64,000 nucleotides of DNA from Escherichia coli (lineage in GTDB: Bacteria > Pseudomonadota > Gammaproteobacteria > Enterobacterales > Enterobacteriaceae): the NCBI RefSeq assembly GCF_024700885.2, contig NZ_CP117016.1; one strand, 5' to 3'. This document shows, piece after piece, positions 7,908 through 9,349 of the stretch. A model generated the notes under the pieces. The model was given only the letters and a program-made list of their open reading frames with translations. It did no database searches and was not told the origin of the DNA. Each line of letters starts with the position of its first letter. Position 1 is the first letter of the stretch. The position numbers were made by a program, and so were the translations under genes.

Positions 7908-9035
7908 TTAATGATGTGCCACGTCGGTCTGCGCAACAGTGCGATTTACACGCAGAGTGAAAATAATCAGCGAACCGATGACCGCCACCGCTGCCAGCGT
8001 CAGTAATCCCGCCGCATCGCTGGCAAACAACGTTTCTGCTTTCACGCGCAGGATCGGGGCAATAAACCCACCCACTGCACCAAACAGGTTTACAAAACCA
8101 ATCCCCGCCGCCAGCGCCGTACCGGAAAGAAGTTGTGTCGGCATCGTCCAGAACACCGGCTGCACGGCAATGAACCCGATGGCTGCAACACACAGCGCTA
8201 CGATCGCCAGTACTGGAGAAAGCAGCCCGGAGAGACCAATACCAATGCCCGCCGCCAGTAATGTCAGCGCTGCGACATTACGCCGTTCGCCGGTTTTATC
8301 GGAATAGCGCGGAATAAGCCAGGTCCCAAACAAGGCCGCGACCCACGGAATGGCGGTGACCACCGACGCCGTAAAGCCCACTTTTGTCCCCAGCAATGCA
8401 GCAACCTGGGTCGGCAGGAAGAAAATTAATCCGTAAACCGCCACCTGAATGGTCAGGTAGATAATCGCCAGTTGCCAGACTCGGCCATTACGCAGCGCAT
8501 CGCTCAATCGAGAAGTCACTTTCTGTTGTTCTTCACTTGCCAGTTGATTGATAAGCAACGTTTTTTCTTGTTTACTCAGAAAACGTGCCTGCTCCGGTGT
8601 GTCATCAAGCCAAAAGAATGTGAATACCCCAGCGCCGACTGCCAGCAATCCTTCAATCACAAACATCCAGAACCAGCCGGGATGCCCCATAAATCTATGC
8701 ATCTCCAGCAGCGCGCCGGAAAGCGGTGATCCCAGTGTTAACGCCAGCGGTGCGCCCATATAGAACAACCCCATAATGCTGGCGCGATTACGCTGCGGAA
8801 ACCATTGCGAGGTGAGATAAATCATACCAGGGAAAAACCCGGCCTCCGCAGCACCAAGCAGAGTGCGAACGATCAGAAATTTCGCTTCAGTATCGGCCCA
8901 TGCCGTGGCTGCCGAAAGAAATCCCCACAGCAGTGTTGTCGTACCAATCCAGGTTCTGGCCCCCAGTTTTCGCATCAAAAGATTCGCCGGAACCCCCAGA
9001 AACGCGTATACCACAAAGAAAATGCCTGCTCCCAG
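7908..9035 (-). pseudogene. rhmT: L-rhamnonate MFS transporter, 5'-truncated (first transmembrane helix missing)
   Basis: Reading frame is MFS (LMRKLGAR motif-A, then TM3/TM4) but its first native-looking residues (LGAGIFFVVYAFLG = TM2) are preceded by non-MFS sequence shared with the rhmR frame; no TM1 or ATG/RBS. Upstream boundary approximate. Confidence 0.7.
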
Positions 9036-9349
9036 ACCAGCCCTTCGATAATACTTTGCTGTACAGCTGCAGGTTGCCAGGCAAGCAGGCATTTACCTAT
9101 TCCGGAGCGATAAAGCGAAAGGCTTTTTCCTTCATGGGAACGCACGCTGATAGTGGCTGATGACTCCACTTTCAAAATGTAATAAGCGCTGCCGTTATCA
9201 ATAATCCCCAGGTGACATAACAGCCCGGTGGTATCCATCAGTTGCGTCAAACGCGGTCGAGCCAGTTCCCGGAGATCCATCTTGCTTAACGCATGACCGG
9301 AAAGCTCCACCAGCCTGGTCCACAAACAAAAATTTTCCTGGTGATCAAG
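9036..9349 (-). pseudogene. rhmR: IclR-family regulator rhmR, central fragment (effector domain), separated from its N-terminus by the IS and fused at its 3' side to rhmT
   Basis: Frame reads HQENFCLWTRLVELSGHALSKMDLRELARPRLTQLMDTTGLLCHLGIIDNGSAYYILKVESSATISV..GIGKCLLAWQP (IclR effector-domain-like) and runs without a stop into the rhmT region; C-terminal ~100 aa of an IclR protein missing. Confidence 0.7.

Follow-up and report, generated by a model that had tools for sequence, protein, structure and literature searches.

We conclude, with a probability of about 0.88, that the 64-kb window analyzed here (the whole stretch of E. coli chromosomal DNA under study) carries the scar of a 1,739-bp repeat-mediated deletion in the rhmRDTA (yfaXWVU) L-rhamnonate operon, that ISEc46 was subsequently inserted into the remainder, and that the pathway is probably dead. 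The deletion is evident from a single surviving copy of a 12-bp sequence at which the middle of the regulator gene rhmR is joined to a 5′-truncated rhmT, from the complete loss of rhmD, and from intact loci in which the same 12-bp sequence is present twice.

The Deletion Junction

The window has the gene order glpQ-glpT-glpABC-rpnE-rhm-yfaY-yfaZ-nudI-ais-arn-pmrD-men-ela-nuo-...-ackA-pta-yfcC-yfcD and differs from strain MLI114 (NZ_CP117013.1; human stool, Mali) by 1 base over 64 kb. The sole difference is at position 17003, which is A in the window and G in MLI114 and which, by coordinate conversion, falls in arnC. The loci of K-12 (L001), 18KM2445 (L006) and Nissle 1917 were used as intact comparisons. 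In K-12, yfaU (rhmA), yfaV (rhmT), rhmD and yfaX (rhmR) are located on a single strand between rpnE (yfaD) and yfaY, and the order rhmA-rhmT-rhmD-rhmR is the same in the two other strains; the first-pass annotation of the window, made from the sequence alone, had correctly placed rhmD between rhmT and rhmR in K-12. Where an intact operon has four co-oriented genes from yfaY to rpnE, the window retains the flanks and the gene order, but rhmD is gone and rhmR and rhmT are truncated.

The region aligned with K-12 in three collinear blastn segments (Table 1). The matches on the rhmA/rhmT side and on the rhmR side overlap by exactly 12 bp, GCCTGCTCCCAG, at window positions 9024–9035, i.e., within the 9000–9100 interval where the first-pass annotation had placed a deletion junction. 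Alignment with the intact rhmRDTA locus thus mapped the breakpoint and revealed microhomology at it. The 12-mer is present twice, 1,739 bp apart, in both K-12 (L001 3262 and 5001) and 18KM2445 (L006 5989 and 7728), with one copy in rhmT codons 55–58 and the other in rhmR codons 162–165, while deleted loci contain one copy. As can be seen in a three-way alignment, the two parental sequences meet cleanly at the junction, with zero extra bases, and the alignment contains neither filler DNA nor an IS end at this place. The spacing of the two copies in the undeleted allele equals the length of the deletion and a single copy is left without filler, as is characteristic of deletions between repeats. 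The lost interval comprises RhmT residues 1–54, the rhmT-rhmD spacer, all of rhmD and RhmR residues 166–260.

Table 1. Features of the rhm region in window coordinates.
Feature	Position	Strand	Remarks
blastn segment 1	6909–9035		K-12 L001 1146–3273; rhmA and rhmT
rhmA (yfaU), 2-keto-3-deoxy-L-rhamnonate aldolase	7088–7891	−	267 aa, intact; PGAP on the identical MLI114 locus
rhmT (yfaV) remnant	7908–9023	−	codons 59–429 and stop; RhmT residues 55–429 counting the 12-bp repeat
Chimeric 394-aa ORF	7908–9092	−	19 novel N-terminal residues (MPACLATCSCTAKYYRRAG), then RhmT 55–429
rhmR (yfaX) middle fragment	8975–9350	−	codons 57–165, first half of the IclR_C effector domain
Deletion junction	9024–9035	.	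one surviving 12-bp repeat copy, GCCTGCTCCCAG (CTGGGAGCAGGC on the coding strand)
blastn segment 2	9024–9350		K-12 L001 5001–5327, 99.7%; rhmR interior
ISEc46 (IS200/IS605 family)	9351–11112	−	1,762 bp, in rhmR after codon 56; missing from K-12
tnpB of ISEc46	9391–10560	−
tnpA (Y1 transposase) of ISEc46	10617–11042	+
rhmR 5′ fragment	11113–11280	−	codons 1–56, HTH_IclR domain; severed from the rest by the IS
blastn segment 3	11113–12000		K-12 L001 5327–6214; rhmR 5′ end and yfaY

The repeat is the longest perfect direct repeat of the 4.17-kb intact operon, the others being imperfect or 11 nt long. Since arithmetic gives about 0.5 exact 12-mer repeats expected by chance in a 4.2-kb sequence, we regard it as a chance feature that was used as a deletion substrate. 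The repeat varies somewhat between strains: in PEC148 (L004), the first base of the junction 12-mer (window position 9024) is A rather than G, and the first two bases of the rhmR copy are different in Nissle 1917, B2-type loci sharing only 10 bp of perfect homology.

Two further features of the window lie outside the rhm genes. The rpnE (yfaD) gene at 6085–7047 codes for 320 aa, compared with 299 aa in K-12, and has about three copies of a 24-bp (8-codon) tandem repeat at its 3′ end (6856–6939); its annotated length is 900–972 bp depending on the strain, with frameshifts in some strains. An Rfam scan of the whole window retrieved a single match at gathering score, the nuoG RNA motif RF01748 at 45164–45206 on the minus strand (50.3 bits).

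Remnants of the Operon Genes

The rhmT remnant is read as part of a chimeric ORF. Its 19 N-terminal residues, beginning with the ATG at 9092, are rhmR sequence translated out of frame, and from residue 20 onward it corresponds to K-12 RhmT from residue 55 onward (LGAGIFFVVYAFLGVPANLLMRKLGAR...). This comparison of frames and residues bears out the proposed out-of-frame fusion of rhmR to a 5′-truncated rhmT. The first transmembrane helix, TM1 (VRLIPFMLALYVLAFLDRSNIGFA), is gone along with RhmT residues 1–54: the Pfam MFS_1 profile is matched at positions 34–347 in the remnant versus 2–347 in K-12 RhmT, so that the rhmT start and TM1 are missing, as had been claimed, and a complete MFS fold, i.e., the whole profile including TM1, is not encoded. 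MFS proteins have a 12-TM fold, and a member that lacks TM1 should neither fold nor transport. The transporter function of the product is thus probably lost. The truncated ORF is open in all five carrier haplotypes examined. PGAP annotates it as an “MFS transporter” (WP_257843814.1 in MLI114) without a pseudogene flag; this 394-aa RefSeq entry is a chimeric, TM1-less pseudogene product that passed the pipeline unflagged, and every carrier haplotype has its own accession for such a protein.

The regulator gene is in two pieces. The translation of its middle fragment is identical to K-12 RhmR residues 57–165 and matches positions 2–92 of the 174 positions of the IclR_C profile; beyond the junction, the frame continues for 15 out-of-frame residues and ends with a stop at 8975–8977 on the minus strand. 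All 56 residues of the 5′ fragment are identical to K-12 RhmR and match HTH_IclR. PGAP calls both pieces pseudogenes, the middle one with both termini missing and the 5′ one “missing C-terminus”. A full-length IclR-type regulator is therefore not encoded, the HTH domain being on a separate 56-codon piece and IclR_C being partial. The missing end, residues 166–260, amounts to 95 residues, close to the approximately 100 codons estimated from the window alone.

A tblastn search of the 64-kb window with RhmD as the query returned zero matches, in line with the reported absence of rhmD. The rhmA product contains a full-length HpcH_HpaI domain (E = 1.6e−66) and its gene has no internal stops. With rhmA as the only intact gene, rhmT truncated, rhmD gone and rhmR left as pseudogene pieces, the description of the locus as one in decay is appropriate. 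In O158:H23 strain CFIAFB20140388 (L008 3501–4304), the same junction and ISEc46 are accompanied by an internal stop in rhmA, so that there decay has reached even the one gene of the operon that had been left intact.

The ISEc46 Insertion

The IS that had been noticed in rhmR is ISEc46, at 9351–11112, which is also the family name given by PGAP. It contains Y1_Tnp, OrfB_IS605 and Cas12f1-like_TNB domains (PF01797, PF01385, PF07282, PF12323). As expected for the IS200/IS605 family, the genes of a Y1 (HuH) TnpA and of TnpB/OrfB are both present and the insertion generated no target-site duplication; the boundary is ambiguous by 1 nt (G), and K-12 is continuous across L001 5327. A promoter and terminator scan of 8900–11550 yielded the divergent promoter-like sites to be expected in the IS (10554–10616), terminator-like matches at chance level and nothing else. 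No RNA family was detected at the ISEc46 ends at gathering score in the Rfam scan. Window-type genomes have a second place matching ISEc46 and small-genome carriers have the rhmR copy alone. It thus follows that the element is stable and of very low copy number.

Distribution among Complete E. coli Genomes

The survey covered 5,426 complete E. coli genomes. The deletion junction was found in 143 of them and, since these are independent complete genomes, it is no assembly artefact. Sixty-three genomes have both the junction and ISEc46 at the same rhmR site. About 80 have the junction without the IS; these are nearly identical mutually, and many are avian isolates, e.g., APEC O78:H4. In none of the 5,426 genomes, some 3,800 of which have an intact locus, did ISEc46 occupy that site in an rhmR that was otherwise intact. 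The latter search was performed with a synthetic query in which the intact 3′ part of rhmR was joined to the IS end; the best coverage, 70%, came from deleted alleles. Because ISEc46 is limited to junction carriers and the junction also exists without it, this nested pattern indicates that the deletion probably preceded the insertion. Alternatively, the IS-free carriers may have lost the element by precise excision. Spread of the IS by TnpB-guided “homing”, another scenario, should have placed the IS in intact rhmR alleles as well; it was rejected because no such allele was found.

At least four rhmA-rhmT′ haplotypes can be told apart among the carriers: the window type (24 genomes at ≥99.8%), MEW, O158:H23, and EC96/PEC148 with GPEC464. 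The allele is a widespread polymorphism and is not private to the window strain. Its carriers include an MLI114/O166:H15-like group, many avian-pathogenic O78:H4-type strains and a group of small-genome strains, and they should be unable to use L-rhamnonate via the rhm locus. The junction and the IS site provide two simple nested markers by which carriers can be recognized by PCR or in silico.

Alternative Explanations

One can ask whether anything is missing at all, i.e., whether rhmT naturally begins near 9092 in a lineage that never had rhmD between rhmT and rhmR. PGAP does call the 394-aa ORF an ordinary “MFS transporter” CDS. However, at least 80% of rhmA-rhmT-rhmD-rhmR, with RhmT of 429 aa, is present in 3,821 of the 5,426 genomes and rhmD is detectable in 3,836; in intact genomes rhmT starts 162 bp further upstream than the window ORF and is separated from rhmR by rhmD. 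Since, in addition, the initial 19 residues of the ORF are out-of-frame rhmR and the first 33 MFS_1 profile positions are unmatched, we consider a naturally short rhmT without rhmD refuted by these sequence comparisons. It is also highly improbable that the neighboring ISEc46 caused the deletion through transposase- or TnpB-induced breakage and repair. Although the element is located just 315 bp from the junction, and on deleted alleles only, the identical junction occurs without it in about 80 genomes. The IS site is neither within nor adjacent to the deleted interval, the intervening 315 bp of rhmR is intact, and the fusion is repeat to repeat, with no IS end in it. Very unlikely, too, is that the remnant is still useful and that selection maintains the TM1-less transporter, rhmA or both, expressed, e.g., through tnpB read-through. 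Such a role could be suggested by the uninterrupted rhmT′ ORF of five divergent carrier haplotypes, four of which also have an intact rhmA, and by the location of tnpB, rhmT′ and rhmA on the minus strand. Yet flanks recently imported from functional alleles account for the open frames, the differences being mostly synonymous; residual function of a transporter without TM1 is unlikely on general grounds; one carrier has a stop inside rhmA; and in about 1,250 genomes nearly all of the locus is gone, most of rhmA included.

A further point is whether the deletion arose once. In MAFFT alignments, the rhmA-rhmT′ flanks of carriers differ by 29–55 of 1,948 positions, as much as intact alleles differ among themselves, and at least three rhmT haplotypes stay distinct up to 18–30 bp from the junction (variable sites 8994 and 9006). 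The closest sequence to the window rhmT′ is the intact allele of 18KM2445, at 19–20 differences. These observations, as well as the presence of the 12-bp repeat in most intact loci, are what one would expect from recurrence, i.e., if the identical 1,739-bp deletion arose independently several times with the repeat acting as a hotspot; a single origin needs several recombination end-points very near the heterology, and independent deletions would give the same haplotype pattern. Recurrence is nonetheless unlikely in our view, because 63 carriers of at least four haplotypes have ISEc46 at exactly the same position in rhmR, with the copies of three carrier types differing at 7–9 of 1,762 bases (0.4–0.5%), and because none of the ca. 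3,800 genomes whose locus is intact has this insertion. It would be unparsimonious to assume that both events happened repeatedly, independently and in the same order. Moreover, GPEC464, which has no IS, has rhmT′ and rhmR variants in common with the IS carriers EC96 and PEC148.

Most probably, then, a single composite allele of moderate age had its rhmA-rhmT and yfaY flanks replaced later on through homologous recombination. The flank differences are mostly synonymous (about 6 nonsynonymous to 24 synonymous in carriers), which argues that they represent diversity from functional genes and not pseudogene drift. Over rhmT′ and rhmA, the carrier ratio of about 6:24 compares with 2–4:19–26 among intact alleles, i.e., with slightly more nonsynonymous changes in carriers; since most of the differences are pre-existing synonymous diversity, this test says little about the time spent as a pseudogene. 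Published estimates for E. coli give a mean recombination tract of 542 bp and a rho/theta of about 1 (PMC3505186). By these values, a mutational divergence of 0.45% would correspond to about 2.5 recombination events per flanking site, so that the linkage between an old indel and its flanks should be broken as far as the edge of the heterology.

Proposed Mechanism and State of the Pathway

Spontaneous deletions between short direct repeats are classic events in E. coli, e.g., in lacI, and are ascribed to slippage or short-homology illegitimate recombination; the repeat length and distance observed here (12 bp and 1.7 kb) are typical for them. We propose that the two perfect 12-bp repeats in rhmT and rhmR became misaligned and that replication slippage or short-homology illegitimate recombination would then have removed one repeat copy and everything between the two, i.e., rhmT up to codon 54, all of rhmD and the 95 3′-terminal codons of rhmR. 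ISEc46 would have been inserted later into the remaining rhmR, after codon 56. The structure of the junction supports a deletion between the repeats. The L-rhamnonate pathway of this locus is predicted to be non-functional, since its dehydratase is gone, the effector domain of the regulator is incomplete and the transporter lacks TM1.

Other rhm Loss Alleles

About 30% of complete E. coli genomes have no intact rhm locus, and several independent alleles are responsible. A much more common one than that of the window, exemplified by TCM_B_2 (L012 4001–4462), is found in about 1,250 of the 5,426 genomes and keeps only the last 462 bp of rhmA; this remnant directly adjoins yfaY, with rhmT, rhmD and rhmR all gone. 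In HYM1 (L013 5592–7233), rhmD-rhmR is replaced by a different IS200/IS605 element (TnpB WP_001310055.1, partial tnpA), which directly adjoins an rhmT of almost full length. The transporter gene contains IS1203 in one strain, and a published study describes mcr-1-pap2 inserted into it on the chromosome (PMC6206212). The literature that we retrieved on the rhm operon and ISEc46 covers the organization of the operon and this unrelated mcr-1 insertion and does not describe the present deletion.

The variety of loss alleles implies that the rhm operon has been lost repeatedly in the species and, given their combined share of the genomes, that it is dispensable in much of it. The feature in the window is routine pseudogenization of a dispensable catabolic operon by a well-known mechanism, present in public annotated genomes, and the mapping of its junction adds no new biology. 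The loss of rhm from about 30% of genomes through at least four independent alleles raises the thought that loss is favored and not merely neutral, the scar then being either an old persisting allele that recombination has carried from one lineage to other, unrelated ones or a recurrent hotspot product. We hold this to be doubtful; if true, the rhm locus would illustrate in nature how genes are lost in parallel and possibly adaptively.

Comparison with Known Systems

The window locus shares its chromosomal site (rpnE-yfaY), strand and gene order with K-12 rhmRDTA (yfaX-yfaW-yfaV-yfaU, b2248–b2245), and its rhmA, rhmT remnant and rhmR fragments are 97–99.7% identical to those of K-12; it differs by the absence of 1,739 bp and by the presence of ISEc46, which splits rhmR after codon 56. 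The other rhm loss alleles inactivate the same operon through different breakpoints and mechanisms, whereas the allele described here is defined by its 12-bp repeat junction. The window ISEc46 copy has the properties of its IS200/IS605 relatives, namely, Y1 TnpA and TnpB in divergent arrangement and insertion without target-site duplication; according to our data, it played no role in the deletion and is a stable marker present in 63 genomes, on deleted alleles only. As in the classic short-repeat deletions of the lacI type, a perfect repeat, here of 12 bp, lies at both ends of the lost segment, one copy is kept, and no extra bases are found.
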